Assembly: GCA_942491945.1 (NCBI GenBank)
Contig: CALODD010000037.1
Span: 67,500-131,499, forward strand
Direction of reading: 5' to 3'
DNA: 64,000 nucleotides
DNA from: an uncultured Gammaproteobacteria bacterium
Lineage (GTDB): Bacteria; Pseudomonadota; Gammaproteobacteria; JAJDYQ01
Below the pieces are notes generated by a model. It did not search any database and had not been told where the DNA came from. It saw nothing but the letters and a program-made list of their open reading frames with translations. The position numbers and the translations under genes are program-made. The first letter of the stretch is position 1, and each line of letters begins with the position of its first letter. Below, in pieces: positions 10,107 to 30,197 of this stretch.

Positions 10107-11461
10107 ACCAGACCTTCAGGTACATCTTCAGGGCTGATATCTTTTAAATGCCCAATAACCTGCGCACCATTATCAGGCCGATCCTCTGGTGACTTCGCCA
10201 ACAACACTTCGATAAGACCGTTCAATCCATCCCACTTATCAGTCAAAGCTGGGATCGGCTCACGTACATGCGCTGTAAATACCTGCAATGATGTCTTGCC
10301 TGTGAACGGGCGCTTACCTTCCAGCATTTCATACAGAATAACGCCCAGTGCGTACAGGTCGCAACGCTGATCAATCTTTCCGCCGACGGCCTGTTCAGGA
10401 CTAATGTAATACGGTGTACCGATGATCTGTCCTTCTTTCGTTAGATGCTTATCATGGCTATCAAAGGCCTTGGCAACACCAAAATCGACCAGCGCTAATG
10501 CGCCGTCTTCACGAAATAATATATTCGCTGGTTTTAAATCACGGTGCAGAATATTTAACTCATAAGCGGCCTGTAATCCTGCAGCGATTTGTGCCGCGTA
10601 CTGGATAGCTTCGGTCCGTGATACGCCTTCGCGAATTCTCGATTTTAAATCTCCACCTGGCAGGTATTCCATGACATTGTAAAAATATTCACCCTCAGCA
10701 ACATGCTCAAGAATTCGAACCACGTTCGGGTGATGAATTTCATTCAGTAATTCAAATTCCTGCGCAAATCGACGGGTTGAAACATCATCGATGAGCTGAT
10801 TATCCATTAGCTTTAGAGCATATAGCTGCTCGGATTGTCTGTGCCTGACTTTAAACACCGAAGCCGCACCTCCCATACCCAGATATTCCAGCACATCATA
10901 AGCACCCAGTCTGGCTTTACCTTCGGCGATCTCCAACATCGTGAACGGCCAGGTATTGTCCATCACCTCTTCGGGTAGCGTCAGCCATGCCCCAGAGAAC
11001 GGTGCATTAATTTGACTCATATCAGAAGGCTCGTCATCGACTTCCATGCTTTCTTTAGTGGCTTTCAATGTCGCAAGCCGCGCCAGTGATTCACGCAAGG
11101 TCTGGATATCCAGCATACTCATGGCCAGATAATCCAGCGCACCATGTCGCATCATCTCAGTGGATCGCTTCATGCTGTCTTTAAAGTCGATCACGATCAC
11201 TCGGCCAGCGATATCACTCTCGAGTTGCCCAAGAAAATCACTCGTAAACTCAAATTCCTTACCCGTCACCAGGAAAACAATATCGATAGAACTCAGGACT
11301 GAGGCGTTTAAATCTTGCAACGCCTGCCAGGAAAGACTGGTGGATGCAGAAAAAGCTTCGGTGAATAATGGTTCGAGCGCAGGCCGTAAACGAATATCAT
11401 CCAGCGCAATCAGCGCGGTATCAGCCTGCATGGCTGACATACGGTCATACTGCCCCGTCAC
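10103..11461 (-). CDS. Pseudo-receiver domain - Hanks-type Ser/Thr protein kinase
   Basis: Canonical HRDLKPANIL, DFGVAK and GTPYYISPE motifs. The N-terminal ~140 aa are REC-like but lack a clear acceptor Asp (IVFLVTGKEF). Confidence 0.8.
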   Translation of the reverse strand: MTGQYDRMSAMQADTALIALDDIRLRPALEPLFTEAFSASTSLSWQALQDLNASVLSSIDIVFLVTGKEFEFTSDFLGQLESDIAGRVIVIDFKDSMKRSTEMMRHGALDYLAMSMLDIQTLRESLARLATLKATKESMEVDDEPSDMSQINAPFSGAWLTLPEEVMDNTWPFTMLEIAEGKARLGAYDVLEYLGMGGAASVFKVRHRQSEQLYALKLMDNQLIDDVSTRRFAQEFELLNEIHHPNVVRILEHVAEGEYFYNVMEYLPGGDLKSRIREGVSRTEAIQYAAQIAAGLQAAYELNILHRDLKPANILFREDGALALVDFGVAKAFDSHDKHLTKEGQIIGTPYYISPEQAVGGKIDQRCDLYALGVILYEMLEGKRPFTGKTSLQVFTAHVREPIPALTDKWDGLNGLIEVLLAKSPEDRPDNGAQVIGHLKDISPEDVPEGLV

Positions 11462-15537: not shown

Positions 15538-16458
15538 ATGGAACTCACGCTATGCATGATCGTCAAGGACGAAGAAGACAATATCGCTGACTGTCTGCGA
15601 CCGATACACGATCTGGTCAGTGATATTCAAATTATTGATACGGGATCGAGTGATCGTACGGTCGAAATCCTGCAGGGTGAGTTCAATATACACCCACGCA
15701 CTATCCTATTAAGAGACCGACATTGCTTTAGCTTTGGTGGTGCACGAACACTCTGTTTCCAACAGGCAAAAACAGACTGGATAATGCTGCTGGACGCCGA
15801 TGAAAGAATCGAACGAGGAGAATTAGAACAACTCATCGAATACCCGATGCCACAGAAAACTCATGGCTTGTTTGTGAGATGGGTCACACAGACTAAAAGC
15901 CACACGATTGAAGATTACAAACTTCCAATCTTCTCGAAAGATACCCGACACCGCGGTCGCATGCATGACACTGCTCAACCTGACTTCAGAAAGAAAGGTC
16001 GTATTGCAAAATGGTATAACGATTTAACTATCAGTCATTTTCCCAAAGAATCCAGCCGAGCCGACAAATCTAACTGGCGCTTAAAAGTCATGTCCTGCGG
16101 TTTACGCTATTCACCAAAATGGTATCGACATAGCTGGTTTCTCGGATACACCTATTACAAGGACAATGATTTAGACAATGCCCTGCAGCATCTACAACGT
16201 TGCGCTAATTCTAATTCTGAACGTTTTCCTGTTGAGCGTATAAATAGCCTGATGGTAATGACAGAAATTTATGCGCAGCAGAATGACATGATGTTAGCTA
16301 GTGCCTCTTTAAATAAGGCATTACAACTATATTTATCACATGAAAATGATTTTGAAGTAAGCATCAATTTTCGAATGAAACACTGGCTATACCTAACATC
16401 ACAATATCTAACTCATGGTGAGTTACACCATATCAAAGCCTATGAGTTTTCGTACTAA
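15538..16458 (+). CDS. Family 2 glycosyltransferase with C-terminal TPR-like helical region
   Basis: MIVKDEEDNI...DTGSSDRT...LDADE, typical GT2 DxD-type N-terminus. Confidence 0.6.
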   Translation: MELTLCMIVKDEEDNIADCLRPIHDLVSDIQIIDTGSSDRTVEILQGEFNIHPRTILLRDRHCFSFGGARTLCFQQAKTDWIMLLDADERIERGELEQLIEYPMPQKTHGLFVRWVTQTKSHTIEDYKLPIFSKDTRHRGRMHDTAQPDFRKKGRIAKWYNDLTISHFPKESSRADKSNWRLKVMSCGLRYSPKWYRHSWFLGYTYYKDNDLDNALQHLQRCANSNSERFPVERINSLMVMTEIYAQQNDMMLASASLNKALQLYLSHENDFEVSINFRMKHWLYLTSQYLTHGELHHIKAYEFSY

Positions 16459-17849
16459 GACATCAACTCCGACCTGAAATCCTCATACTTGCCTGCGGCG
16501 CTGCGCGGTACGTCAGAAACCTGATTTACCTTAATCGTCATTCCCGGCAAGTCCTGTTCAAACATTCTCTGGAGCTGCATCTGCTCAGTATTTGTCAGCT
16601 CTCGTGTACAAACAAGATCAGCACGAACAAGATCGTATTGCTGCTGCACAATTTGAAATTGTTTCACTGGTGCAATACCACGCAGCCGAGGTTCATTAAT
16701 CAAAGGCCAGAATGACGTACCATCTTCTCGGAGAAATATATTCCTGTATCGACCCATGATTTTGTTGAGTACTTTTAGACCACGTCCACAGGAACATGGT
16801 GTATGCCCAACTTCAGCCAGATCACCGATTTCATAACGTATTAATGGCATAGAAAAATTATGTAGATCTGTTACCACGACTTTACCCGTTTCGCCCGGTG
16901 CGCAAGGCTGGCCTTGCTCGTTCAATACTTCCATAAACACATCTTCTTCCATAATATGATAATGACTATGTTCCGGACACTGGAGTGCCAGATAGCCAAC
17001 TTCCCCACAACTATAGCCATCGACTAAATCCATACCAAGCACTTGCCTCGACAGTTCCCTCAAACCCTCAGGAATCTGTTCACTAAACGTCATGACCTGT
17101 TTTAACTTAGGTGCGTTATTATTTTCCTGCCAGTAATAAAGCAAGGTTTTTAGATTAGAGGGGTAGGTCAGTAAGTAATCAATAGATTCCGCTTTAATCC
17201 ACTCTGTCTGATGCGCGACATCGGCATAAATACTCAAGCTGGCAGCTTCGCCCGTCACGAATACTCGAGCTGCCGCTTCCCCCCAACGATCATGACTGTA
17301 CGCCGTCGGATGATCGCCATCATGAAAATCCGTATAGCGAATTGCACCAAATTTTGCATGCAAATCCCGCTCATGCCATAGATGACCTCGCAAGGTCATG
17401 GCTTGCCAGAACATATCGGTTAACTGGTTTTTTATAGAATAGACCGGCATCCCGGTTGAACCAGAGCTATGACTGAAAATTGATAGACCATGCTGGCGAG
17501 ATGGGAAAGCACTTAGCAGTTCTTTCTGATGGTGTTGTAGCTGTTCTCGAGTCAGAACAGGTAACTGCAACCAACGGTCCATTGATAGTGGAAAATTAAA
17601 ACTTAGATTCAGCTCTCGATAATGCTGCTGATAAAAAGGTACTGTATCTACTGCGTGTTCCAGCAGGTGTTCAAGCTGAAATAATTGCAACGTCTGTATT
17701 TCACTGGCTGACAACCATTGGCTTTTTTCGAGTTGATATTGCACCGAAGCCATCGCATTCGCCTGATCACTCTGCTGCACGGGCCAGACGATACCTGGGA
17801 CATGTAACTCATCACTTCGAAACGTATGATTCAAATCAGGCAACCGCAC
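16455..17849 (-). CDS. PaaK/CapK/F390-synthetase-like adenylate-forming enzyme (paralog 1)
   Basis: SSGSTGMPV P-loop and YSCGEVGY. The C-terminus GKYEDFRSEL is shared with the paralogs. Overlaps the next gene by 14 nt. Confidence 0.65.
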   Translation of the reverse strand: MRLPDLNHTFRSDELHVPGIVWPVQQSDQANAMASVQYQLEKSQWLSASEIQTLQLFQLEHLLEHAVDTVPFYQQHYRELNLSFNFPLSMDRWLQLPVLTREQLQHHQKELLSAFPSRQHGLSIFSHSSGSTGMPVYSIKNQLTDMFWQAMTLRGHLWHERDLHAKFGAIRYTDFHDGDHPTAYSHDRWGEAAARVFVTGEAASLSIYADVAHQTEWIKAESIDYLLTYPSNLKTLLYYWQENNNAPKLKQVMTFSEQIPEGLRELSRQVLGMDLVDGYSCGEVGYLALQCPEHSHYHIMEEDVFMEVLNEQGQPCAPGETGKVVVTDLHNFSMPLIRYEIGDLAEVGHTPCSCGRGLKVLNKIMGRYRNIFLREDGTSFWPLINEPRLRGIAPVKQFQIVQQQYDLVRADLVCTRELTNTEQMQLQRMFEQDLPGMTIKVNQVSDVPRSAAGKYEDFRSELMS

Positions 17850-19407
17850 TCGACTTTCTTATAAATTCAATCGGTACACCATCCATATACTCGGGAACAG
17901 GCTGCCCCATCAAATCGAGCAGTGTTGCAGTCAGATTGATCGCATGTGTTTCAGGCAGGCGCTGGCCTTGCGGAATGGACTGACCGGAAAACAGGGCAAA
18001 GCCATACGGACGATGTCCACCCGTTCTGAAGTAAGGCACTGGGCCAATCAGACCGGCATTTTCATCACGCACACTATCGAAAGGCTGTTGGTCATTCCAT
18101 TGCACGATTAAATCGGCATCTGGTAACCCAGATTGACCAAGCTGCTTGCTAGTTCTGGTTCGAACAATATTTTTAACAACTGACTGTCCTGAACGACCAT
18201 CCTTCAGCTGCGACACTTGTGAAGCAAGCTGATCACAATAGTCATCGTACTGTTCTGCTGAAATCATGCCATCGCGCTCACGCCCTTCAAGATTGATTCG
18301 TATGTACCCATCGGAATAACTCGGTAAGGCAAATGCCGACATCTGAGACCAGACCGTTCGATACCAGTTCGCTGGCATCCAGTCGAGCAGATCCTGACGA
18401 GCAATCTGCTCATCCGGTGATTCAAGTTTGTGGCCCGCCTTGTCAGACAATCGCCGCCACATCTCATATTTCCAGTGCAGCGGGAAGTTATAATCCAGCC
18501 CATCCTGATAAAATTTATCGGGGTCACCCAACGCCATTTCGCCGGGGAATGCCCAGCGATACATCGACTCAGGTAACAGCAACATGCTTGAGACATCCAT
18601 CACATTCGCCTGCATGCCATGAATAGAAAATACTGCGATGGTTGTCGAGTCATCGGCATCATCCATCAACTTACCGATCAGTTCATCACTGCGGATATAA
18701 ATATCCCTGACCCCCTGCTCACTCTCATCAGAATCATTCAATGGGTAATCCAGCCCCAGATGCCAGAGCGAGTGCCCTGCAGGGTGTGTTTCACCAATCG
18801 CACATAGAAACAAATCCCAGTCATCACTCTGGTAAGTTTCCATGAAGAGTTGTTCACGCATATCCAGCCCCTGCATGAACTCCTGCTTTAATACCGCCAG
18901 TTCCTCTCGGTCATAGCAGTTACGATGATCCCGCATCAAGGTCGGATGACAGCCAATCCGTTCACGAACATCGGCCAGCCAGTCGGCTGGTATCGACTCA
19001 CTGGGTGCCTGTGGTGAATGCGCACCCCAGCCAATCAATTGCTTTCCATTGACATCAACATGTGGACGACTATGCGGCATATCCATCACAGCCACTTTGG
19101 CTTTGTCACCCAGGGCATAAAACGGTGCGATATCTTTAAAATCATTCGCACCGGATTCAGTTGCTGTATATGTCTCAGGATCATAGGTCAGCATGCCCCA
19201 GTAACCACTGGTTTCCGGTAGACAACCAGTCAGAAAGTTAGTCCAGGGCGTTTCTGATTGGTAGATTTCCATATTACGCAAGGGTACGTAACTACCCTGC
19301 TCAGCTAATCGGGAAAGATTCGGCAGATAACCATCGGTCATCCAACGCTCAACTAACAGCGAATCTGCCGCATCAATCGCAATCGCTAGTAAACGGGATT
19401 TCCTCAT
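17836..19407 (-). CDS. Type I phosphodiesterase/nucleotide pyrophosphatase (alkaline-phosphatase superfamily) protein
   Basis: The N-terminus AIDAADSLLVERWMTDGYLPNLSRL and SETPWTNFLTG (putative Thr nucleophile) resemble the NPP/AlkP core. It is coupled by 4-nt and 14-nt overlaps to the flanking PaaK-like genes. Confidence 0.55.
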   Translation of the reverse strand: MRKSRLLAIAIDAADSLLVERWMTDGYLPNLSRLAEQGSYVPLRNMEIYQSETPWTNFLTGCLPETSGYWGMLTYDPETYTATESGANDFKDIAPFYALGDKAKVAVMDMPHSRPHVDVNGKQLIGWGAHSPQAPSESIPADWLADVRERIGCHPTLMRDHRNCYDREELAVLKQEFMQGLDMREQLFMETYQSDDWDLFLCAIGETHPAGHSLWHLGLDYPLNDSDESEQGVRDIYIRSDELIGKLMDDADDSTTIAVFSIHGMQANVMDVSSMLLLPESMYRWAFPGEMALGDPDKFYQDGLDYNFPLHWKYEMWRRLSDKAGHKLESPDEQIARQDLLDWMPANWYRTVWSQMSAFALPSYSDGYIRINLEGRERDGMISAEQYDDYCDQLASQVSQLKDGRSGQSVVKNIVRTRTSKQLGQSGLPDADLIVQWNDQQPFDSVRDENAGLIGPVPYFRTGGHRPYGFALFSGQSIPQGQRLPETHAINLTATLLDLMGQPVPEYMDGVPIEFIRKSSAVA

Positions 19408-20789
19408 AGCTCTGATTTGAAATCCTCGTATTTCCCCGTTGGGGATCGTTCAATTTCATCCGGATAGACAAAACGAAATTCAAACGCATGCCGTAATTCT
19501 TTCGTCAGCATGTCACTGATGGTTTGCTGCTCATTCGTATTCAGCTCTCGGTCAGCGACCAGACGTACCTCGATCACTTCTGATTCGATCTGAGCGAGTT
19601 GTAACTGCGTCACTGGCGCGATCTCCGTAATACGTCGCGTTGAAAAGACCGGCCAGTGCGAGGAACCATCTGGTAGCTTCAACATATTCCTGGTACGACC
19701 CAGAATACGTTTCAGGGTTAGCGACCCTCGACCACAGGCACAGGGCTCTCCCACCTCAGCGTAATCTCCAATTTCATAACGAATCAGAGGCATCGCAAAA
19801 TTATGCAATGGGGTGACGACGACTCGCCCTGTTTCTCTGCTCTTACAGGGCTGATATTCGTCATTTAAGACTTCGACAAGCATCGTTTCAGAACAAACGT
19901 GATAACTACCATGCTCAGGACATTGGAAAGCAATATTTCCAACTTCCATTGCGCTGTAAATATCGGCAATCGATGTATCAAAAACTTTCTCGCAATAAGC
20001 TCGGTCCTCAGCAGTTAAGACTTCGCCAATCGTACGAATTTGTTCAATCGATTGTAGTTCTGCATCAGATTGATCCATCAACTCCGCGAGCGCTCTCAGA
20101 TTCGAGGGATAAGTTAATAGATAATCAGGTTGCTCATCCAACAGCCAACGCAGCTGATCGGCAACATCACATTCTATGCTCAGCATGACGGTCATACCGC
20201 CGGAGTAGACTTCATCAATCGGGTGGCCCCAACCGGCAGAGCGTATGCCAGGCGGTGACCGGGCTTCCTCACTATCACCGGTATAGCGAATCGATGCGAG
20301 TTTTTTACGATGATTCCGTCCATGCCATTCATGTTCTCGTAAAGTCTGCGCGTACCACATAAATTGCTGCATATCGGTGACATAGACATTGACTGGCAAA
20401 CCTGTTGAACCGGATGAGCCTGTTTCAAGGATATCGCCATGCTCTTTCGGTATTGCCGTACTGGTCAAATCGGCTGAGTGCCGCTGTAAAGCCCAGCGTT
20501 GAAGTACGGGGATAGACTGCCATTCATCGATACTAATACCCGGCCGGGAGAGATTGATACGTTGTAATTCGGATAGACTTCGATAGTAGGATACCGTCCG
20601 AATCGCATGATCCAGTAAGGCATGAAGTTGTTTTAGCTGTTGTTGCTGAATTTCACCACAGCTAAGCCGTTCAGACTGGCTAAACTGGAACTGCATAGAT
20701 AGCAGGGAGGCGGCCGTTGGTGAGGGTAAAGCCGGCCACATAACACCCTGCAATGTGGAGTCAGCGACTACCGGTGGCATTTCCATCAT
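19404..20789 (-). CDS. PaaK/CapK/F390-synthetase-like adenylate-forming enzyme (paralog 2)
   Basis: SSGSTGLPV P-loop and C-terminal GKYEDFKSEL. Confidence 0.65.
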   Translation of the reverse strand: MMEMPPVVADSTLQGVMWPALPSPTAASLLSMQFQFSQSERLSCGEIQQQQLKQLHALLDHAIRTVSYYRSLSELQRINLSRPGISIDEWQSIPVLQRWALQRHSADLTSTAIPKEHGDILETGSSGSTGLPVNVYVTDMQQFMWYAQTLREHEWHGRNHRKKLASIRYTGDSEEARSPPGIRSAGWGHPIDEVYSGGMTVMLSIECDVADQLRWLLDEQPDYLLTYPSNLRALAELMDQSDAELQSIEQIRTIGEVLTAEDRAYCEKVFDTSIADIYSAMEVGNIAFQCPEHGSYHVCSETMLVEVLNDEYQPCKSRETGRVVVTPLHNFAMPLIRYEIGDYAEVGEPCACGRGSLTLKRILGRTRNMLKLPDGSSHWPVFSTRRITEIAPVTQLQLAQIESEVIEVRLVADRELNTNEQQTISDMLTKELRHAFEFRFVYPDEIERSPTGKYEDFKSEL

Positions 20790-20877
20790 TGCTAACCCAA
20801 ATAAAATCCGCCGGGAATTACCTGCTATTGGGAATCAAAGCATCATGAGTCCCGACGATTGCATAATTAGCGATCTA

Positions 20878-22164
20878 CTACCTTGCAAGCGGCCGCGAAG
20901 TCGCATGAAACGTATCTGCACGATCAGATTGTGTCAGGGCACCTCTCATCAAGGTCGCGCCGATAATATCAGCCCCCGTTGATCCAATAAATGAAGCATC
21001 GACGACACCACCATCTACCGAATTTCCAAAATTCTGCACAATCGTACCTGTCAACACAGATCCACTGAACGTACCGCCCGCATCAAAGTTAGGCCCAGTA
21101 CCACCTGTCCATGAGCCCGTCCAGGTTTTATTCGTAAAATTCACTGTCATCCCAATGTTTTTAGTGCCTTTATGAGAACGCCCAATAAAGTTGACCGCAC
21201 CCAGATTTGACATCCCGTTAATGGTGGCAGCAGCAGTCGGACGGCCGGCAACAAAACTACCGTTTAATCTACCAGCCCCCTCAGCACCGTTCGCACCTGG
21301 AACAACTCGGTCGATAAATAAGAAGTTTAGGCGACCTTCCAGACCATCCGGCTCACCGTGACCCGTCGTAAAAGTACTCGGCGCATTAAACCCGAACCAA
21401 CCGGGTGCTTCATTAAGCGCTCCACCATACGTAAAAAAGTTAGTTCCACCCATACCGCCACCAGCAGTTATTTGACCACCAGTAGCTACCCCACCGATTT
21501 TAATTGGGGCCGGAGCAGCAGCACCTTTCATCGATAAATGGATACTCTGTTGAGCATTATTTGTAATTTTCTGCCATGGAGCCACTGGAACCGCAGGTAC
21601 TGGATTTATTGCGTCAACCGTTAGCGCACCGCCGCCCAAATTCGAAAAATTTGTTATTGAATAACTCATTGTCGTTACCACGTCTTTAGTGGTATTCACT
21701 GGAACCGTCGTCGGATCAGCATCACTGAGCTTAATAGCCAATCGACCAATTCCACCGACTTGTGGTTTATCGAGAGCACTGTGATTTAAACCACCGGTTG
21801 TAATATCACTAATACGACCTTCAGCCGCTACAAAACCACGGAAGTCACCTTTTGCAAGACGTGTTGTACTGCCTGTATTTGTAGTTCCGGGTCTAAAGTT
21901 TTGCTTCGGGTTATTCGCAACGCCGCTCTGACCTCCGGGACCTTTGCCGTTATTATCACCATTACTGCCGTCATTCTTAACGACAACCAGGCGTCCAGCA
22001 GCCGTCCTGTGAACAACGACGGGCTTAGTACTCGTACCAGCGCCGGCTAACCACGGACCCCAGTCGGTTACATCATCTGCAATCGCTGCTGGTGCAGCTA
22101 CAGCCATTGCTATGGAACAACTTAGTGTTGTTTTACGTCCATTCATGTTTTTCATGTTTACCAT
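20878..22164 (-). CDS. Gly/Thr-rich secreted beta-rich protein. Candidate surface-exposed cargo of the adjacent Slam-like OMP.
   Basis: Signal peptide with an AIA-DD cleavage site. No canonical lipobox. The C-terminal region has G/T-rich, amphipathic beta-barrel-like repeats (GTFSGSVLTGTIVQNFG...). Confidence 0.4.
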   Translation of the reverse strand: MVNMKNMNGRKTTLSCSIAMAVAAPAAIADDVTDWGPWLAGAGTSTKPVVVHRTAAGRLVVVKNDGSNGDNNGKGPGGQSGVANNPKQNFRPGTTNTGSTTRLAKGDFRGFVAAEGRISDITTGGLNHSALDKPQVGGIGRLAIKLSDADPTTVPVNTTKDVVTTMSYSITNFSNLGGGALTVDAINPVPAVPVAPWQKITNNAQQSIHLSMKGAAAPAPIKIGGVATGGQITAGGGMGGTNFFTYGGALNEAPGWFGFNAPSTFTTGHGEPDGLEGRLNFLFIDRVVPGANGAEGAGRLNGSFVAGRPTAAATINGMSNLGAVNFIGRSHKGTKNIGMTVNFTNKTWTGSWTGGTGPNFDAGGTFSGSVLTGTIVQNFGNSVDGGVVDASFIGSTGADIIGATLMRGALTQSDRADTFHATSRPLAR

Positions 22165-22236
22165 CCTGCCATCCAGAGATGACTTTAATCCGTTTCTGAA
22201 TTAAATAATTCTAGTTCAGTTTGTAATAACTGCTGT

Positions 22237-23505
22237 TTAGTTCCACTGTTTACCGATACTAATACCGGCCTGCTGGCGATCGTAGGAATAACCAATGGTA
22301 TTGCTATTGTTGTCGGTATCACTGAAATAGCCGCTGACAATCCAGTTCTTCAGACGCCCACTTTGAAAAGTATGATTCACACCCAGTGAAGTAGAACGAT
22401 AGGATTCATCACGATCATCAACCGACAGCAATGCGCTTATAGTGTCTTTGTATTTGGTGTCTTTATCTGTATAACGCAGCGATACAGTACCGCCCTTCCA
22501 GGCGTTCCAGCTACCTCCAACAAAGTATTCTTCACCTCGACTAGAGTAAGCATCAACCTTGGCGCTTTCATCAAAACTGGTTACTCCAGCAGATAGCGTG
22601 ACTTTATCGTTGATCTGATAGGCAACAGCCGCACTGATGGCTTTATAGGTACTATCGCGTCCCAAATTATCGTTTGTCTGGTCAGTGTAGTCGCGATCCT
22701 GAACCTCTGCAGATAGACTAATTTCGGCTTTTTTGTATTGCCAGGACACACCTGGAGCAATCGAAACATAGTTCGCTAAATTGGTATTCCCGAGACGAAT
22801 ATGATCAGCCTGCAGACTGATGGAACCACGTAGTTCATTTGCGATAACAAATGCTGGGCCGGTACGCACTGTCAGCACATCAAGATCGAAATCATTTTCA
22901 GAATCGTAGTCATCGCGGAAAAAAGCTAAATCTGTCAGCCACATCCAGGCAACGTCTTTGCCGCGCAGTTTGGTCGTTTTGTCAAACAAGTAACGATGGG
23001 TAGCTGACGCGTTGTAATTCGTACCTTCGTCCGACTGAGGATTACTCGTCGCTGGCAATGTCACGCCACCAATTGTTCCAGCACCGGCACCGACATTGAC
23101 GTTGTCATCGCTAGTACGGCCGACGAAGATTGAACCTGACCATTTATGCTTCTTACTCTCGTCTTGCAGACGTTGCATGAATTCACGAATCGTGACTTTC
23201 ACACCCTCAGGTGTTTTTGGATCATTCAGAACTTCTTCTGCCATGCCGCGCGCTTCCTGGAAATTCAGGGTATAAAAACGAGTCAGAGCAAGTTCCAGAC
23301 GAGCACGCGCAAGTGACGGCTCCTTATTAACAATTTGCTGAAGCAGGCCTACCGCGTCATGATAGTTACCCTGCTCACGTTGCTGCAGTGCTTCATCGAA
23401 CGCTTTCTGGATATCTTCAGAGACTGCATACGCAGGCGCTGCGACAGCTAGCGATAACACTAAGGCCGTCGATAAAGAAACCAATTGTTGTTTTAGTGAG
23501 CGCAT
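22237..23505 (-). CDS. TPR-domain plus C-terminal beta-barrel outer-membrane protein (Slam/DUF560-like)
   Basis: Signal peptide (..AAPAYA). ~100-aa TPR-like helical domain. C-terminal region of alternating amphipathic beta strands ending in W-rich residues. GGGGGAGTAATG RBS/start at 23505. Confidence 0.45.
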   Translation of the reverse strand: MRSLKQQLVSLSTALVLSLAVAAPAYAVSEDIQKAFDEALQQREQGNYHDAVGLLQQIVNKEPSLARARLELALTRFYTLNFQEARGMAEEVLNDPKTPEGVKVTIREFMQRLQDESKKHKWSGSIFVGRTSDDNVNVGAGAGTIGGVTLPATSNPQSDEGTNYNASATHRYLFDKTTKLRGKDVAWMWLTDLAFFRDDYDSENDFDLDVLTVRTGPAFVIANELRGSISLQADHIRLGNTNLANYVSIAPGVSWQYKKAEISLSAEVQDRDYTDQTNDNLGRDSTYKAISAAVAYQINDKVTLSAGVTSFDESAKVDAYSSRGEEYFVGGSWNAWKGGTVSLRYTDKDTKYKDTISALLSVDDRDESYRSTSLGVNHTFQSGRLKNWIVSGYFSDTDNNSNTIGYSYDRQQAGISIGKQWN

Positions 23506-23687
23506 TACTCCCCCCAGAGATGATAAAAGTGCGCTAGTCGCATAATGTATTGCATACGGACTACCATTAAATAGATAGCAATAATTCACAATATGATAAA
23601 TGTACTACCAATCCAGATATAATAGGGTAATAGCCTACATATTTAAATAGAAGATTTCAAAAGTCTACACACTAATTAACCGGATAA

Positions 23688-24356
23688 ATGTTACTTAAAA
23701 TTAACCATCACAAGCTCAGAGAGCCGTTGTCACTTCGTCAGGGCTCCAGCGATGAACACAACTATCAACAGATTTTTGTCGACGATGAATACTGTATTGA
23801 GACGAAGATTGCCCCAAAAACCATAGTAGATCTTGGGGCGAATATCGGTTTGTCAGCGATCTGGTTTGCTTCGCACTACCCAGACAGCCTTATTATTGCA
23901 ATTGAACCAGAACGGTCGAATTACCAATTACTAGCGGAGAACGCCTCTGTCTACGAAAATATTCGGACACTGCGTGCCGCAGTCTGGTTTGAAGAGACTG
24001 AGCTTCATCTTACAGATCCGGGAAAGGGCCACTGGGGGTTTCAAACTCAAGAACAAGACTCCCCTAATGCATTCGATCGCATCAGCACCGTAACTGTCCG
24101 ATCAATTATGAAAAACCACAATATCAATCACATCGATATTCTAAAAATCGATATTGAAGGCGCTGAAGTCGAATTACTTTCAGATAATTCCCAATGGATC
24201 TCTCAGGTGAATATGATCATCATTGAACTGCATGATCGTTTTCGCGAGGGGTGCCAGGAAGCCCTGCATAACATTGCACACCATTTTGATCAGCAATGGC
24301 AACAGGGCGAAAATATCGTACTGGCGAAATCTTCGTTTATTAACAGGGCGGCCTAA
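23688..24356 (+). CDS. FkbM-family SAM-dependent methyltransferase
   Basis: VDLGANIGLSAIWFA, typical FkbM motif I. Confidence 0.65.
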   Translation: MLLKINHHKLREPLSLRQGSSDEHNYQQIFVDDEYCIETKIAPKTIVDLGANIGLSAIWFASHYPDSLIIAIEPERSNYQLLAENASVYENIRTLRAAVWFEETELHLTDPGKGHWGFQTQEQDSPNAFDRISTVTVRSIMKNHNINHIDILKIDIEGAEVELLSDNSQWISQVNMIIIELHDRFREGCQEALHNIAHHFDQQWQQGENIVLAKSSFINRAA

Positions 24357-25735
24357 TCCAGCTCACTCATGAAATCTTCGTATTTACCAGATGCTGACCT
24401 GGGAATATCATCGACGTAGCGATAGTTGATTTTGAATGGATAACCCAGGCTCTCTTGCAAGACGTCATCCATTTTTCGAGTCTGCTCATAATCCAGAGAT
24501 TCTGACAACACCAGCTGCAATTCCAGTGTATCCAATGTTTTCTGGATTAATCGGTACTGACGAATATCTGCTATCGCATTGAACCGTCCATCCTCCATCA
24601 TCGGCCAGAAATAAGCACCATCGGGGCGTCGTAACATATTTCGTGCACGACCATAGACGCGGTTCAGCACAGGCAGGGTTCGCCCGCAACTACAGGCATT
24701 ACCCAGTTCTGCGTAATCCCCCACTTCGTATCGAATTAAGGGCGTTGCGAAACTGTGCAAAGAGGTTATGACCACTCGGCCTGTTTGTCCTGGTAAACAA
24801 GGTTCATCATTCTCATCGAGAATTTCGATGTAATTGGCTTCGGCTAGCTGATGATAATGGTCCTGTTCGGGGCACTGCAAAGCCAAATGACCCGTCTCTT
24901 GTGCTGAATAAACATCTTGCAGTTCCGCGCCAAGCACTTCTTCGCACAGTTGCCGCAAACCATCAGGCAACTGTTCTGCCATGGTCACAACGACCTTTAT
25001 CGACAGTGATTCATCACGAGACTGCAGAATACGACAAATTGCCCGTAGGTTGCTCGGGTAGGTCAACAAGTATTGCGGTCGCTCTTTCAATAACCAGTCG
25101 ACCTGCTCGCCAACGTCATCAATCACGTTTTTAACAGCACACTCGCCACTCTTAAACGCCATTGCTGTCGCTGAACCCCAGTCATCCAGGATGTACTCAG
25201 TCGATGCCTCGTGCGTATTCCCCAGGAAACGGATAACTGCAACTTTGTCACCTACTTCCCGCTGATGCCAGATATCGTCACGCATACTCTGCGCCATCCA
25301 CATCAACTGATTAACTTCCGTTCGATACACCGTAATCGATTTACCCGTTGAGCCCGAGGTACTGACTGAACTAATACCGCCATGCTCTTCAGGAGTGCGG
25401 TTGCAGCTAATCTCTGATAGGTTCTGCTGCAACTCGGTACGCGTGAGTATCGGTAACCTGCACAGGAAATCCGCATCAATCTTCATCCCCTGCCGATAAT
25501 TAACCTGATCTAGTCGTTCTCGATACCAGAGACTGTGCTTCCAGGCATGTTCAAAGAGCAATCCCAGCTGACGAAACTGCAGCCACTGAATTTCCTCCAG
25601 CGGCATTCGCTCCGATTGCTGCAGCTGGCGTTGCATAGCGAGTAATGTCGCATTCTCTGATGTAGGGACACCGGGCCAGACGATATTGGGAATTGCGGTC
25701 TTCACTTGCATCGCACTAGTGTGCCGGAACGACAT
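24353..25735 (-). CDS. PaaK/CapK/F390-synthetase-like adenylate-forming enzyme (paralog 3)
   Basis: TSGSTGKSI P-loop and C-terminal GKYEDFMSEL. Confidence 0.65.
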   Translation of the reverse strand: MSFRHTSAMQVKTAIPNIVWPGVPTSENATLLAMQRQLQQSERMPLEEIQWLQFRQLGLLFEHAWKHSLWYRERLDQVNYRQGMKIDADFLCRLPILTRTELQQNLSEISCNRTPEEHGGISSVSTSGSTGKSITVYRTEVNQLMWMAQSMRDDIWHQREVGDKVAVIRFLGNTHEASTEYILDDWGSATAMAFKSGECAVKNVIDDVGEQVDWLLKERPQYLLTYPSNLRAICRILQSRDESLSIKVVVTMAEQLPDGLRQLCEEVLGAELQDVYSAQETGHLALQCPEQDHYHQLAEANYIEILDENDEPCLPGQTGRVVITSLHSFATPLIRYEVGDYAELGNACSCGRTLPVLNRVYGRARNMLRRPDGAYFWPMMEDGRFNAIADIRQYRLIQKTLDTLELQLVLSESLDYEQTRKMDDVLQESLGYPFKINYRYVDDIPRSASGKYEDFMSELD

Positions 25736-25778: not shown

Positions 25779-25979
25779 ATGAACATTACTTTAAACGGCG
25801 ACACACATCCGCTTGACGAGCAAGCCACGGTTCAAACTTTGATTGAACAGCAGGGTCTGATCGGCAAACGCATTGCTGTCGAAGTTAATCAGGAAATCGT
25901 GCCGCGCAGTTTGCATGAGGAGCACCAGCTGCAGGACGGGGATCAGGTAGAAATCGTTCACGCCATCGGTGGTGGCTAA
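25779..25979 (+). CDS. thiS: Sulfur-carrier protein ThiS
   Basis: 66 aa ending in GG, upstream of thiG. Confidence 0.8.
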   Translation: MNITLNGDTHPLDEQATVQTLIEQQGLIGKRIAVEVNQEIVPRSLHEEHQLQDGDQVEIVHAIGGG

Positions 25980-27683: not shown

Positions 27684-30197
27684 ATGGCAATTTTGGGATC
27701 ATTCAGTCTTGGCGGCGCGCTAGACAAAATACTGACCACAGGCGATATTGAAGCGCCTGCAGTTCAGTCCGCGCTGAAGAAACTGACTGATAACCCCAAG
27801 GCCGCGATGGAGAAAGTGCTCAATGTAATCGCTTCCGGTCCGAGACTGCATCACTCAACAGCGTATAAGCTGGTTAGCCGCTTACTGGACAACACAACGG
27901 TTGGCATGGTGATGCAGGCATTACCCTCCTTTCCCGATGACGCTCAGGCACAAATTGCTACAACTCTAAATACCAGCAATCAATATGACCCACATTTGTT
28001 ACTACCGTATTTGCGCACACCACTAAATACCTCACTCTGTAAAGATATGCTCACAGCGCATCGCCGAGATTTTAAAGCTGCAAAATTACTCTCCGCAGTC
28101 ATCAAAATTGACCCGGATTTACAGGACAATGTATTCGAACTCATTCATGCCAATGTCGATGAAACAGCGCTTGCTGAAGCGATCGCCCTGAGTCATAGCA
28201 AAGACGACAATATTCGAACACAGGTCACCAGCATCATCGCCGAGTTTGACAATCCGGCGGCCCAGGAAGCACTGATGACCCTGTTGAATGACAACAGTCA
28301 AAAGGTTCGTCTTAATGCCCTGCGAGGTCTTGTCAAAATACGTGCTGATCTAGCAACAGGTGATTTATTCCGTTTGATGTCAAAAGCAAAGAAAGAAGAA
28401 TCGCCTTTAGTAAAGGCATTAATTAGCTGCTCCACCGACCCTAAGCTACTAGAAAACTTCATCGAGGCACTATTCGCACCGAAAGGCAAAATGAAGCCAC
28501 TTGCCATCGCTGGCCTGTCTGAATTAATGAATAAAGACGTGCTATATGAAATTTTTTACGAATTGCATGATAAGCCAGAAGCCACGCAGGATTCTATGAT
28601 CCGTTCACTACAGGATGCAGGTGGCGAAAAGTTTCTGACGGCCGCCAATGAATTACTCAGTCACTACGACGAAGATATACGACGACTGGCGGCGAATGCA
28701 TTCCATGAACAGGATACCGGTGAAGAAACTGTGATTGAAGGTATGTTGAATGGCCTAGCCGTCGACATACCTAACAATTTAAAGCTGGAATACATTGAAA
28801 AACTCGGACACGCTGGTGTCACTAGCGCAGTCGATCCACTCATTAAAATTTTAGGCAGCGAAGACACCGAACTATTCGCGCCTTCGCTAGATGCACTGGC
28901 AAGTATTGGCGACCCAAAAGCACTGGCTGCGGCTTTTGAAGCTCTGAACGCCAAAGACATTGAAATCCAGACAAGTGCGCTGAAGTGTCTAAATGCCATT
29001 ACACCAGACAAGTTTGCTGAACGCTTACGTGACCAGTTATTAGAGCTATCCAACCATGTCCATGAAGATGTCATAGAGGAACTAGTCAATACGGTTGAAA
29101 CACTGACTGACAAGCACAACCTTCGCACCACAACGCATTACAAACGCACGATTGAGTCGCTTAAAAAATCCGATAACGATGAATTTGGATTTGCGCCCGA
29201 AGCTTCGTCAGCGAATAGCATGTTTGCTCCTGAAGAAGAATCGAGTTCGTCTTACTCCATGTTCGGTAAGGATGAAGCTGATAATGGCGTCTTTGGCGTG
29301 GTCGATGAAACCGATAGCGGATCTGGAGATGAATCAGCTGAGCCAGCAGAAGAACCTGTCTTTGCGGTCAATCTCGAAGAAGGGCTAGTACTGAATGACC
29401 GCTATGAGTTGATCCGAGAAATTGGCCGTGGTGGTTATGGTTCCGTCTGGCTAATAAAAGACAACTTCATCCAGGAAGAAATGGTGATGAAGTTTCTTCA
29501 TCAACAGCTGGTATCAGACGATATTGCTATTGAACGTTTTATTCGCGAGCTACGACTGGCACGAAAGATTACTCACAAGAACATTATTCGTTTGTTCGAC
29601 TATCTCGATCTAGGCAAGGTCACTGCGATCTCCATGGAATACTTCGAGGGCGCAGCACTCTCCAGCCTCATCAAAGACGGGCCGATAGAAATTAATGCGA
29701 TTGCCAAGATTGCATCCATCACCTGCGATGCCCTGCATTCGGCGCATGAAGCCGGCGTTATTCACCGCGATATGAAACCGGCAAACATTCTGGTCGACAC
29801 TAACCATGAAATAAAAATTGTCGACTTCGGCATTGCAGCGGCCAGCAAACATGCAGAATCCAGACTAACCCGTACCGGTACTCTCATTGGTACGCCGACC
29901 TATATTTCACCCGAGCAAATTCAGGGTAAAGCGGTTGATGCCAGAACGGACATCTATAGTCTGGGCATCATCATGTACGAAATGTTATCCGGCTCACCGC
30001 CATATCTGGCTGATGACCCGATGGCACTAATTTTCATGCATGTTGAAGGCAGTGCACGACGAATTGATGACGTCAATCCGCTGGTTCCAAAGGAATTCGC
30101 TGATATCGTTCATAAGTGCATATTGCCTGATCCTGATGAACGCTTTCAGAGCATGCTAGAACTACGCGAAGCAATTTCTCAAACAGGTTTAGCCTGA
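27684..30197 (+). CDS. HEAT/PBS-lyase-repeat protein fused to C-terminal Hanks-type Ser/Thr kinase
   Basis: N-terminal ~530 aa of HEAT-like repeats. Kinase motifs GRGGYGSVW, HRDMKPANIL, DFGIA and GTPTYISPE. Confidence 0.8.
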   Translation: MAILGSFSLGGALDKILTTGDIEAPAVQSALKKLTDNPKAAMEKVLNVIASGPRLHHSTAYKLVSRLLDNTTVGMVMQALPSFPDDAQAQIATTLNTSNQYDPHLLLPYLRTPLNTSLCKDMLTAHRRDFKAAKLLSAVIKIDPDLQDNVFELIHANVDETALAEAIALSHSKDDNIRTQVTSIIAEFDNPAAQEALMTLLNDNSQKVRLNALRGLVKIRADLATGDLFRLMSKAKKEESPLVKALISCSTDPKLLENFIEALFAPKGKMKPLAIAGLSELMNKDVLYEIFYELHDKPEATQDSMIRSLQDAGGEKFLTAANELLSHYDEDIRRLAANAFHEQDTGEETVIEGMLNGLAVDIPNNLKLEYIEKLGHAGVTSAVDPLIKILGSEDTELFAPSLDALASIGDPKALAAAFEALNAKDIEIQTSALKCLNAITPDKFAERLRDQLLELSNHVHEDVIEELVNTVETLTDKHNLRTTTHYKRTIESLKKSDNDEFGFAPEASSANSMFAPEEESSSSYSMFGKDEADNGVFGVVDETDSGSGDESAEPAEEPVFAVNLEEGLVLNDRYELIREIGRGGYGSVWLIKDNFIQEEMVMKFLHQQLVSDDIAIERFIRELRLARKITHKNIIRLFDYLDLGKVTAISMEYFEGAALSSLIKDGPIEINAIAKIASITCDALHSAHEAGVIHRDMKPANILVDTNHEIKIVDFGIAAASKHAESRLTRTGTLIGTPTYISPEQIQGKAVDARTDIYSLGIIMYEMLSGSPPYLADDPMALIFMHVEGSARRIDDVNPLVPKEFADIVHKCILPDPDERFQSMLELREAISQTGLA

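Follow-up and report, generated by a model that had tools for sequence, protein, structure and literature searches.

A Slam-like exporter and its candidate cargo encoded with PaaK-like ligases in an uncultured Gammaproteobacteria bacterium: possible tailoring of a surface protein before export

Background

What would an outer-membrane exporter and its secreted cargo share with three PaaK-like ligases and an alkaline-phosphatase-superfamily (AlkP) enzyme encoded in the same block of genes? We addressed this question for one locus of an uncultured Gammaproteobacteria bacterium, using the whole 64-kb stretch of DNA analysed (hereafter, the window) and related loci in other genomes. The combination of a Slam-type exporter and its cargo with PaaK-like ligases is described in none of the papers found in our literature search.

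Results

Eight open reading frames were found between 15538 and 25735, exactly where the preliminary description had placed them, and its family assignments were upheld by HMM searches (Glycos_transf_2 with TPR, AMP-binding/PaaK-like, Phosphodiest and FkbM), with TPR_Slam remaining below its cutoff. The predicted features are as follows.

15538..16458, plus strand: GT2 glycosyltransferase (GT-A fold, DAD motif) with a C-terminal TPR region (Pfam GT2 and TPR)
16455..17849, minus strand: ligase A, AMP-binding/PaaK-like, at the end of the operon, with GTG as start codon
17836..19407, minus strand: cytoplasmic AlkP-superfamily enzyme (NPP/COG3379-like), overlapping both adjoining ligase genes
19404..20789, minus strand: ligase B, AMP-binding/PaaK-like, first enzyme gene of the operon
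20878..22164, minus strand: T11SS cargo with a Gly/Thr/Asn-rich passenger, Sec-exported, no lipobox, C-terminal 8-strand TbpB-type barrel
20893..21243, minus strand: C-terminal helix and 8-strand barrel of the cargo, residues 308-424 (AF2 model; Foldseek)
21994..22005, minus strand: TAAG, cargo residues 54-57, fitting the [T/A/P]AAG LapG/DvhG cleavage consensus, 15 residues past WGPW
22051..22062, minus strand: WGPW motif, cargo residues 35-38, immediately following the signal-peptidase I site predicted at AIA|DD
22169..22182, minus strand: leader motif TCATCTCTGG(ATGG), 8 nt ahead of the cargo start codon
22237..23505, minus strand: divergent Slam/T11SS (DUF560-superfamily) outer-membrane protein (OMP) with Sec signal peptide, periplasmic TPR domain and 14-strand beta-barrel
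23510..23523, minus strand: leader motif TCATCTCTGG(GGGG), 8 nt ahead of the OMP start codon
23688..24356, plus strand: FkbM-family SAM methyltransferase, pointing away from the OMP gene (Methyltransf_21 61.6 bits, TIGR01444 93 bits)
24353..25735, minus strand: ligase C, AMP-binding/PaaK-like, a transcription unit of its own that points away from thiS and towards FkbM

The minus-strand order is OMP, cargo, ligase B, AlkP and ligase A, and the genes from the cargo to ligase A are co-directional with short gaps or overlaps. The overlaps, as already described, amount to 4 nt between ligase B and AlkP (19404-19407) and 14 nt between AlkP and ligase A (17836-17849), while the OMP-cargo and cargo-ligase B gaps measure 72 and 88 bp, with no terminator-like site called in either. 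In addition, the OMP and cargo start codons are preceded, at equal distance, by the leader 10-mer, which has no further copies in the 64 kb. The block is flanked by hisI-cysS on one side and by thiS (~25779-25979), thiG and trmB on the other, and its base composition is not markedly foreign, only the GT2-TPR (0.418) and FkbM (0.442) genes having a GC content under the window mean of 0.462. It is not a capsule or O-antigen locus, one of the outcomes that would have changed its interpretation: Wzx, Wzy, Wza and ABC exporter genes, an initiating transferase and NDP-sugar genes are absent from the block.

The OMP reading frame is open from a GTG at 23589 (22237-23589), and the start is likely the ATG at 23505, which is preceded by a GGGAG Shine-Dalgarno sequence. 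With Pfam models, the window OMP scored 30.3 bits against TPR_Slam (cutoff 35.2) and gave no match to SlipAM; among the 18 members of its family, TPR_Slam was found in all 18 and SlipAM in 8. The family profile aligned with a canonical DUF560 protein in hhalign (99.1% probability, E 5e-19, 375 columns), and the AF2 model (pLDDT 81) displays helices at residues 58-145 followed by 14 strands at 148-449. Profile and model together identify the OMP as a predicted DUF560-superfamily protein with TPR and 14-strand barrel, a divergent Slam/T11SS member as first proposed, and not an alginate or PGA porin.

The Gly-rich protein, which had been suggested as the substrate of this exporter, appears indeed to be its cargo, since the only matches to its modelled C-terminal 8-strand barrel are TbpB, fHbp and NHBA, all of them Slam substrates. 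These three accounted for all of the best 50 Foldseek matches in the PDB (as an example, TM 0.73 and rmsd 2.9 against the fHbp C-barrel 4ayn), and the barrel is presumed to be the T11SS recognition domain. The C-terminal helix and barrel are the sole confidently modelled part of the protein, the N-terminal 300 residues having pLDDT <50. At E<=0.001, the whole cargo matched only its own sequence (8000 candidates from 5.8 billion proteins); distant relatives, most of them with TbpB_B_D, were reached by an exhaustive search through the C-terminal domain, and an 18-sequence family alignment showed that the cargo can be aligned with proteins encoded beside homologous OMPs. A cargo gene adjoins the OMP in 34 of 36 de-duplicated related loci, and we regard a T11SS OMP-cargo pair as very probable.

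This comparison revealed an apparently undescribed, large cargo family with an N-terminal WGPW...[T/P/A]AAG signature. W35, G36 and W38 of the cargo are invariant in the 18-sequence alignment, 68 of the 72 distinct full-length members contain W[GA]xW, and [TPA]AAG follows it in 61 of these 68, at an offset of 4-5 in 57 cases and of 15 in only four (the window cargo, L006 twice and L140). The [T/A/P]AAG consensus for LapG/DvhG cleavage and the DvhD architecture are known from earlier work (PMC13090378). Genes for a LapG-like protease and for a DvhD-like receptor with a degenerate HD-GYP domain adjoin the OMP gene in 28 of 42 de-duplicated related loci; the proteases match Peptidase_C93 and the NCBIfam LapG model, and the receptors combine two TM segments ~300 residues apart with a PAS domain and HD_5, the HHExxDGxGYP motif being found in none of the 37 receptors tested. 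Tether-and-release is the reading that we lean towards for the wider cargo family. In contrast, profile HMMs at E<=1 found no LapG-like or DvhD-like gene in the 64-kb window, and the window TAAG lacks the helix-DP context present in L006 and L140. Since these genes are missing from the window and the TAAG offset is atypical, release may be absent or may use a protease encoded elsewhere, and LapG-type release of the window cargo is rather doubtful.

Judged by sequence, the three PaaK/CapK-like ligases carry intact adenylation motifs, with the SSGSTG P-loop and the C-terminal GKYEDF lysine both kept. They share 41% identity between A and B and 39-40% between C and the other two, and over 550 genomic relatives match ligase B at 41-47% identity. 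The nearest PDB relatives of ligase B are PaaK and PaaK-like ligases, while its scores against the NCBIfam FlxY, DVU_1553 and PaaK models, as all equivalog scores of the PaaK-like genes, fall far under cutoff.

The exporter-cargo pair and PaaK-like ligases, pointed out in the preliminary description as an unusual combination, were found together in other genomes. The PaaK subfamily occurs in 7 of 80 OMP loci retrieved with the OMP alone and at 2 of 8 OMP homologues followed by contig look-up, which together make up 8 of 61 de-duplicated OMP clusters; L172 and the window are added to these. These loci span at least seven cargo sequence clusters and at least three gene orders, in which PaaK follows the cargo, lies within the LapG/DvhD operon or follows LapG; as an example, L172, among the closest OMP relatives (38% identity), reads LapG, then OMP-cargo-PaaK-PaaK-GT1. 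Full-length PaaK genes number 12 in 0.96 Mb of OMP loci, against at least ~600 subfamily matches in 596 Gb of genomes, and the subfamily thus accompanies the OMP-cargo pair well beyond chance expectation. As the association returns in other genomes with the genes in several arrangements, the link appears real, and the ligases are likely to be functionally connected to the OMP-cargo module, of which they would form an optional part since only ~10-15% of OMP loci have them.

The PaaK subfamily was also found beside other kinds of adhesin-related gene: beside canonical DUF560 OMPs with FecR-domain/slam_lipo cargo and GT41-TPR (L045, L049, L056 and L068), beside HMW1/EtpA-like two-partner-secretion adhesins (L020 and L063, plus L025 and L033), and beside an RTX adhesin with DvhD/LapG (L053); GT41 is present in 9 of 80 PaaK-subfamily loci. 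Most of these loci are without a recognisable adhesin, only 22 of the 80 having one within 10 kb, and the other recurrent neighbours (ornithine cyclodeaminase-like, P450, radical SAM, macrolide-type GT1 and SAM methyltransferase genes) look like small-molecule biosynthesis. PaaK-like enzymes with a solved structure or curated name often form amides or esters without CoA in natural-product pathways, and AjiA1, BagE/FevW, DdaG and FlxY are among the ligase matches. The enzymes of the block could therefore make a small molecule or glycolipid (e.g., an amide- or ester-linked acyl or aryl glycoside) that an unmodified cargo binds, carries or is anchored by, much as hemophilin binds haem; known T11SS cargos do bind small ligands or metals (PMC12282271). 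However, a small-molecule exporter, carrier protein, PKS and NRPS are absent from the block, and a common small-molecule ligand fits poorly because the subfamily adjoins adhesins of three secretion routes and protein-type glycosyltransferases (GT41 and GmaR/SunS-like). We consider this explanation unlikely, and tailoring of the protein rather than synthesis of a small molecule is itself proposed only tentatively.

The AlkP enzyme scored 65 bits against Phosphodiest (cutoff 23), and its D12, T56, H208, H212 and H465, invariant in the family alignment, are read by analogy with NPP as metal ligands and Thr nucleophile. Its profile gave weak PDB matches only, the best being phosphonoacetate hydrolase (E 6e-4). 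NPP-family enzymes cleave nucleotide phosphodiester and pyrophosphate bonds, and the AlkP gene is translationally coupled between two ligase genes, an adjacency with the PaaK subfamily seen only once more, in L014. These points would agree with the preliminary description, in which a surface protein or glycoconjugate is adenylylated or acylated by the PaaK-like enzymes and the NPP-type enzyme removes the modification. Our results do not favour such a cycle, which we judge very improbable: none of the enzymes has a signal peptide, and a regulatory cycle makes little sense because writer and eraser would share one compartment before export. Moreover, the adenylate is an intermediate in ANL enzymes, which do not transfer AMP, and AlkP is absent from all OMP-PaaK loci examined other than the window.

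Most homologues of AlkP come from cyanobacteria. Two of their neighbourhoods were inspected, one of them in Gloeothece PCC 7424, and both are clusters of EPS type that include GT2, GT4, Wzy, Wza and sulfotransferase genes. This raises the question of whether the juxtaposition is partly incidental, with a self-contained T11SS module beside enzymes of an unrelated pathway that modifies EPS, capsule or LPS and has its core genes at another site in the genome. The name 'CapK', the Pfam CapK_C domain of homologues, and FkbM and GT2 as typical genes of polysaccharide loci agree with this, as do the opposite strand and lower GC of GT2-TPR and FkbM. However, the excess of PaaK genes beside OMP-cargo pairs in independent gene orders, the compact arrangement from cargo to ligase A, and the lack of polymerase, flippase, exporter and sugar-nucleotide genes in the block make a partly incidental juxtaposition improbable.

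The flanking genes are present where they had been reported, but in other loci the module occurs essentially without FkbM and GT2-TPR. FkbM had no match in related OMP loci, and its link to the system is weak for this reason. GT2-TPR begins 20 bp past cysS and is convergent with ligase A; its nearest solved relatives are two glycosyltransferases of proteins and peptides, GmaR (E 1.9e-11) and SunS (E 8.8e-7, query residues 4-251), and the single GT2 match among related OMP loci (L095) is without TPR. Elsewhere, AlkP, FkbM and GT2-TPR almost never accompany the OMP-cargo module.

Discussion

Altogether, we propose a T11SS pair with cytoplasmic tailoring enzymes that would act on the surface protein before its export, a package for which we see the balance as even. 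The cargo would pass the inner membrane via Sec, and the OMP would bind its C-terminal barrel and deliver the Gly/Thr-rich passenger to the cell surface, while the short N-terminal WGPW peptide would remain periplasmic and tether the protein. Release, in most relatives, may come from cleavage of the AA bond by a LapG-like cysteine protease of the periplasm, which would be restrained by the DvhD-like receptor (periplasmic domain, TM, PAS and degenerate HD-GYP). This pairing of the WGPW...[T/P/A]AAG family with putative c-di-GMP proteolysis genes in most relatives goes beyond what had been noted for this DNA.

In the cytoplasm, the three ligases and the translationally coupled AlkP may decorate the cargo or its glycan before export, the ligases possibly attaching carboxylic-acid-derived substituents via acyl-adenylates; the GmaR/SunS-like GT2-TPR and FkbM could join this decoration, with less support than the ligases and AlkP. 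To our knowledge, no ANL/PaaK-family enzyme modifies a secreted protein, and cytoplasmic decoration before export has precedents in HMW1C, EtpC, Aah/TibC and GmaR.

Organization of the locus

The window encodes a T11SS-type outer-membrane protein (OMP) and its cognate cargo, in what appears to be a single operon with the genes for two PaaK-like ligases and for an enzyme of the alkaline-phosphatase (AlkP) superfamily. The eight open reading frames of the block lie where the preliminary description had placed them, their family assignments were confirmed with both Pfam and NCBIfam, and the overlaps of 4 nt and 14 nt within the ligase-AlkP-ligase stretch are real. The OMP-cargo and cargo-PaaK gaps measure 72 bp and 88 bp, respectively, and no terminator is predicted in either. 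The block lies between hisI-cysS and thiS-thiG-trmB. The features used most often below are as follows.

22237-23505, minus strand: OMP, a Slam/DUF560-like protein
20878-22164, minus strand: cargo, a Gly/Thr-rich secreted protein
17836-19407, minus strand: AlkP, an NPP-like enzyme
23510-23523, minus strand: site of the 10-mer TCATCTCTGG before the OMP gene
22169-22182, minus strand: site of the same 10-mer before the cargo gene

The 10-mer TCATCTCTGG precedes the ATG of the OMP gene and that of the cargo gene in identical form, exactly 8 nt upstream in each case, and has no further copy in the 64-kb window; the two genes may share it as a site of translational or post-transcriptional control. 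Promoter and terminator scans of the window remained at background level, and Rfam found only tRNAs. A foreign base composition was tested as well, with the result that the GC content of the block is near the window mean and shows merely a mild dip at the genes for the GT2-TPR glycosyltransferase (0.418) and the FkbM methyltransferase (0.442). Note that four Hanks-type Ser/Thr kinase genes were observed in 27 kb of the window, two of them flanking the locus, a density that is unusual for a bacterial segment.

3628-5133, minus strand: Hanks-type Ser/Thr kinase
10103-11461, minus strand: Hanks-type Ser/Thr kinase
11516-13519, minus strand: Hanks-type Ser/Thr kinase
27684-30197, plus strand: Hanks-type Ser/Thr kinase with HEAT repeats

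A divergent T11SS exporter and its cargo

In Pfam, the sole specific match of the window OMP is TPR_Slam (30.3 bits, E 6e-7), which lies under the curated cutoff of 35.2, and SlipAM gives no direct match. Seventeen homologues were found with 29-42% identity, and within the family TPR_Slam is matched by all 18 members (best E 1.6e-10) and SlipAM/DUF560 by 8 of the 18. The decisive test was the alignment of the family profile, headed by the window protein, to the OMP of locus L056, a canonical member of DUF560 (SlipAM, 84 bits), and it returned a probability of 99.1% (E 5e-19) over 375 columns covering the TPR and the entire barrel. In addition, the AlphaFold model (AF2, pLDDT 81) predicts a signal peptide, TPR helices at residues 58-145 and 14 beta-strands. 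When this model was compared to the PDB with Foldseek, only generic barrels were returned, with OmpG and CymA (which we take to be 14-stranded barrels) fitting best, and no Slam structure was among the matches listed; at the sequence level, the PDB gave nothing useful for the OMP, the cargo or AlkP. Profile and model together identify the window OMP as a divergent Slam/T11SS protein, which bears out the Slam-like assignment made in the preliminary description.

The cargo, a Gly/Thr-rich protein of 428 aa, is a sequence orphan: it has no family match of its own in Pfam or NCBIfam, and a word-indexed search returned only its own sequence. Exhaustive HMMER searching tied its last ~130 residues to proteins mostly carrying TbpB_B_D, and its relatives match TbpB_B_D and slam_lipo. 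The AlphaFold model is confident only at residues 308-424, which form a helix and eight strands, that is, a predicted C-terminal eight-stranded barrel of the slam_lipo type (TbpB/fHbp); the best 50 Foldseek matches in the PDB are all Slam substrates (TbpB, fHbp or NHBA), with a TM of 0.73 to the fHbp C-barrel. No lipobox or N-terminal lipid anchor was found in the cargo, whose sole cysteine (C16) precedes the hydrophobic core outside any lipobox context, and the predicted cleavage at AIA/DD is a signal-peptidase I site. In both traits, the protein is closer to the soluble T11SS cargo of hemophilin type than to a surface lipoprotein. Altogether, sequence and modelled fold indicate that the Gly-rich protein is the cargo of the window OMP.

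Alignment with proteins encoded beside homologous OMPs highlighted an invariant W-G-x-W straight after the signal peptide, with the consensus DSVxEWGPW. Of 72 distinct, full-length members of the family, drawn from 90 OMP loci, 68 carry the W motif, and in 61 of these 68 it is shortly followed by [T/P/A]AAG, at offset 4-5 in 57 cases and at offset 15 in 4. The latter are the window cargo (DWGPWLAGAGTSTKPVVVHRTAAGRL), two cargos of L006 and one of L140; in the window cargo, TAAG occupies residues 54-57, 15 residues past WGPW. The [T/A/P]AAG sequence is the experimentally defined scissile motif of LapG/DvhG (PMC13090378). By these sequence traits, the window cargo appears as a non-lipoprotein member of a new, widespread family.

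A probable release circuit in related loci

Scanning metagenomes with the trimmed OMP alignment gave 229 relatives, from which 80 loci were kept; these loci and the contigs of OMP protein homologues were annotated with HMMs and de-duplicated at 80% OMP identity, leaving 61 clusters. A cargo gene is adjacent to the OMP in 34 of the 36 clusters having at least 1.5 kb downstream. Among the 42 clusters having at least 3 kb upstream, a Peptidase_C93/LapG-like gene occurs in 29, and in 28 a DvhD-like protein of 680 aa is encoded alongside the protease, the pair being usually divergent from the OMP gene. This putative receptor has two TM segments ~300 residues apart, PAS and HD_5 (one member also matches dCache_1), and the canonical HHExxDGxGYP motif was found in none of the 37 receptors tested. 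DvhD of Desulfovibrio, a degenerate HD-GYP receptor of c-di-GMP, has a matching architecture (PMC13090378).

A four-gene module was thus observed, in which a DvhD-like TM-PAS-degenerate HD-GYP gene and a LapG-like Peptidase_C93 gene are usually divergent from a T11SS OMP gene and a cargo gene whose product carries DSVxEWGPWxxxxPAAG.

L004-L005, L016, L092-L171: loci with the four-gene module
L005:5491-12698: example of the module
L092:3994-13024: example of the module

Within the 64-kb window, a LapG-like (BTLCP) gene was found neither by tblastn nor by phmmer nor by a 45-sequence profile HMM at E<=1, and a DvhD-like or LapD-like receptor gene was likewise absent from searches including a profile HMM at E<=1. 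The block contains no type I secretion (LapEBC-like) genes, its export features being a Sec signal peptide and the T11SS OMP. The sole c-di-GMP-related gene noticed in the window encodes a GGDEF diguanylate cyclase (32879-34156, minus strand) and lies ~9 kb away from the operon of the cargo.

Within T11SS, the exporter and cargo of the window make up a new and divergent pair, and, as the preliminary description had supposed of the gene set as a whole, no account of its combination with PaaK-like ligases was found in the literature searched. The family-level combination with LapG/DvhD-type regulators is also new: LapG/BTLCP was not found together with DUF560, Slam or T11SS in the same literature. 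When the T11SS cargo survey (PMC12282271) was searched by keyword, neither the WGPW...[T/P/A]AAG N-terminus nor any match for ligase, phosphatase or glycosyltransferase appeared.

Association of PaaK-like ligases with the OMP-cargo module

The three ligases (A and B in the operon, C in its flank) are mutually 39-41% identical. Phenylacetate-CoA ligase was ruled out as their identity, since the PaaK equivalog TIGR02155 gives 55-71 bits against a cutoff of 646 and no paa catabolic genes are near; other equivalog models also score far under cutoff. On sequence grounds, we assign them to the PaaK-like/CapK-like superfamily only. A genome scan with the PaaK alignment showed that the subfamily is widespread: over 550 genomic loci were confirmed (37-47% identity), and 2-3 copies often stand in tandem.

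Seven of the 80 loci retrieved by the OMP alone carry this subfamily (L092, L095, L112, L117, L119, L134 and L166), as do 2 of the 8 OMP protein homologues whose contigs were looked up (L005 and L172). In total, it is found in 8 of the 61 de-duplicated OMP clusters, plus L172 and the window. The OMP of L172 is among the closest to that of the window (38% identity), and its order, LapG / OMP-cargo-PaaK-PaaK-GT1, is that of the window minus AlkP.

Gene orders of PaaK-bearing loci
L005, L016, L166, L172: OMP-cargo-PaaK(-PaaK-GT1)
L092, L095, L117: LapG-DvhD-PaaK-PaaK in one operon
L112, L134: LapG-PaaK convergent with OMP-cargo

We considered whether PaaK presence tracks a single cargo subfamily, and it does not. 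PaaK-bearing loci span at least 7 cargo sequence clusters and their gene order varies; therefore, the association is not one inherited accident. The link between ligases and module is genuine and non-random.

A macrolide/EryCIII-type GT1 was also seen to recur as the next gene behind either PaaK-PaaK or the cargo, at the sites below, which suggests that PaaK-PaaK-GT1 is a conserved cassette, missing from the window.

L016:12874-13513, EryCIII-type GT1
L172:6518-6787, EryCIII-type GT1
L006:12632-13882, EryCIII-type GT1
L136:11030-12220, EryCIII-type GT1
L044:12745-14034, EryCIII-type GT1

The ligase subfamily beside other surface proteins

A sample of 80 loci retrieved with the PaaK alignment extended this picture to other surface proteins, and by our own tally at least one adhesin-related neighbour is present in 22 of the 80. 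In L045, L049, L056 and L068, a canonical DUF560 OMP is followed by FecR-domain proteins, then by GT41-TPR, then by PaaK. The FecR-domain protein of L056 at 6256-7674, the only one scanned, matches slam_lipo at its C-terminus and, weakly, a LapA retention module at its N-terminus. Adhesins of two-partner secretion, HMW1/EtpA-like, lie within 10 kb of the subfamily in L020, L063, L025 and L033, and in L053 the ligase comes directly after an adhesin of more than 2800 aa, beside DvhD-like and LapG-like genes. HMW1 and EtpA are the textbook case of adhesins that GT41 enzymes glycosylate in the cytoplasm; among the 80 loci, GT41-TPR occurs in 9 and a macrolide-type GT1 in 4.

L056:3375-11332 (Ca. 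Desulfobacillus denitrificans): DUF560 OMP, two FecR-domain proteins, GT41-TPR, PaaK-subfamily ligase
L020:370-5853: adhesin, EtpA match (E 9e-62)
L063:3330-7400: adhesin, HMW1 match (E 3e-45)
L053:3-13346: cadherin/LamG/RTX adhesin, PaaK-subfamily ligase, DvhD-like and LapG-like genes

In other genomes, FecR-domain and Sel1-repeat genes recur near the subfamily (12 and 10 of the 80 loci, respectively), and the window itself has, 35 kb from the locus, a FecR-domain protein (60245-61126, plus strand) followed by a Sel1-repeat protein (61211-62584, plus strand).

The accompanying enzymes

AlkP belongs to the NPP-like AlkP superfamily by its Phosphodiest score (65 bits against a cutoff of 23) and its conserved residues: across 15 homologues D12, T56, H208, H212 and H465 are invariant and H263 nearly so, and by analogy these may be read as NPP-like metal ligands and nucleophile. 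Its family profile gave only weak matches in the PDB, the best being phosphonoacetate hydrolase (E 6e-4). AlkP homologues are mostly cyanobacterial; in the two neighbourhoods examined, two or three paralogues, often in tandem, lie inside EPS-type clusters with GT2, GT4, hexapeptide acyltransferase, Wzy, Wza and sulfotransferase genes.

L001:3308-10350 (metagenome): EPS-type cluster with AlkP homologues
L002:5584-13476 (Gloeothece citriformis PCC 7424): EPS-type cluster with AlkP homologues

Such company is what would be expected if the window enzymes formed an incidental polysaccharide-modification cassette. Among the eight genes of the block, none belongs to the Wzy/Wzx, ABC exporter, Wza-type export, initiating transferase or NDP-sugar families, and we regard the cassette as less likely than a product acting with the cargo. 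A common capsule, O-antigen or EPS biosynthesis locus, which the preliminary description had named as a reading that would overturn its own, was rejected, since export, polymerase and sugar-nucleotide genes are all missing from the block.

In the GT2-TPR protein, the GT2 domain spans residues 5-102, LLDADE supplies a DAD motif, and TPR matches cover 202-284. Its best PDB matches are GmaR (E 1.9e-11) and SunS (E 8.8e-7, over residues 4-251), a flagellin glycosyltransferase and a peptide S-glycosyltransferase, respectively; it shares their architecture of a GT-A domain with DxD followed by a helical/TPR domain, and its substrate is putatively a protein. The FkbM methyltransferase was confirmed as such by Pfam and NCBIfam. 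In L014, an AlkP homologue (43-44% identity) stands directly after a PaaK-subfamily ligase. AlkP was found in no other OMP-PaaK locus examined, and FkbM and GT2-TPR are essentially non-recurrent, so that membership is argued from translational coupling for AlkP and from proximity only for the other two. As to the interpretation offered in the preliminary description, its exporter-cargo pair and its link to PaaK stand, and AlkP is indeed NPP-like; the cycle of adenylylation (or acylation) and removal that it proposed is unlikely.

Proposed mechanism and its main rival

We propose that the cargo would be tethered via its N-terminal WGPW peptide and that, for most relatives, the LapG-like protease would free it, itself controlled by c-di-GMP through the DvhD-like receptor. 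With lower confidence, we also propose that the cytoplasmic enzymes might tailor the cargo protein itself, or a glycan borne by it, prior to Sec export. Taken as a whole, an unrecognised class of T11SS surface proteins, with a WGPW hold at the OMP, LapG/DvhD release and cytoplasmic tailoring by PaaK-like enzymes (plus AlkP), is a tentative and rather doubtful proposal. Tailoring is favoured by the absence of a small-molecule exporter from the block, by the adhesin-centred neighbourhoods and by the protein-type glycosyltransferases. Its main rival is a small-molecule or glycolipid product acting together with the cargo: neighbours of secondary-metabolite type (ornithine cyclodeaminase-like, P450, radical SAM and GT1) speak against tailoring, and no ANL enzyme is known to us to act on secreted proteins. 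If tailoring were true, ANL-family enzymes would here serve adhesin maturation as their dedicated role for the first time, across adhesins of T11SS, two-partner secretion and T1SS. The recurrence of one PaaK-like subfamily beside adhesins of three secretion routes points to a new post-translational or ligand chemistry on bacterial surface proteins.

Nearly all work on T11SS/Slam concerns host-associated bacteria, where the cargo is a lipoprotein or a hemophore. Our results describe a large environmental branch of T11SS carrying a different cargo family, mostly wired to a LapG/DvhD proteolysis circuit of c-di-GMP that was so far known only for T1SS adhesins and CdrA. If the mechanism holds, regulated surface retention and release by periplasmic proteolysis would be a general module, pluggable into different secretion systems.

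Comparison with known systems

Like Slam1/Slam2 of Neisseria (with TbpB, LbpB, fHbp and HpuA) and the T11SS/DUF560 pairs NilB-NilC and HrpB-hemophilin, the window OMP combines an N-terminal periplasmic TPR domain with a C-terminal DUF560 barrel of 14 strands (predicted from family profile and AF2 model), and the cargo encoded next to it ends in an eight-stranded barrel of the TbpB/fHbp (TbpBBD) type. A Sec type-I signal peptide, together with the lack of a lipid anchor, is a feature that this cargo shares with hemophilin. However, the OMP subfamily is very divergent, the window protein falling below Pfam thresholds; no TonB-dependent receptor, TonB or haem genes are near the window locus; and the relatives of the OMP are paired with LapG/DvhD-like genes and, in a subset, with PaaK-like ligases.

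The related loci share with the Lap (LapA/LapG/LapD), Dvh (DvhA/DvhG/DvhD) and CdrA-LapG systems the pairing of a LapG-like periplasmic protease with a DvhD-type membrane receptor, as well as a presumed substrate with [T/A/P]AAG near its N-terminus. In contrast to the Lap and Dvh systems, this presumed substrate is a Sec/T11SS cargo of 340-450 aa and not a giant T1SS RTX adhesin, and upstream of the cut lies a WGPW peptide of ~20 residues instead of a folded retention module; in the window, moreover, the protease and receptor genes are absent and TAAG is displaced.

The ligases share with PaaK, CapK and F390-synthetase-like ANL enzymes the fold, the SSGSTG P-loop and the C-terminal catalytic lysine, and their homologues carry Pfam CapK_C, whereas the subfamily is distinct in its four conserved cysteines (QCPE...C...CxCGR) and its frequent tandem copies. 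To our knowledge, none of the HMW1C/EtpC (GT41), Aah/TibC, GmaR and FlmG systems has an adenylate-forming ligase or an AlkP-family enzyme. The window resembles all of these in encoding putative cytoplasmic modifying enzymes beside a secreted surface protein, and elsewhere the PaaK subfamily itself lies beside GT41-TPR genes and HMW1/EtpA-like adhesins.
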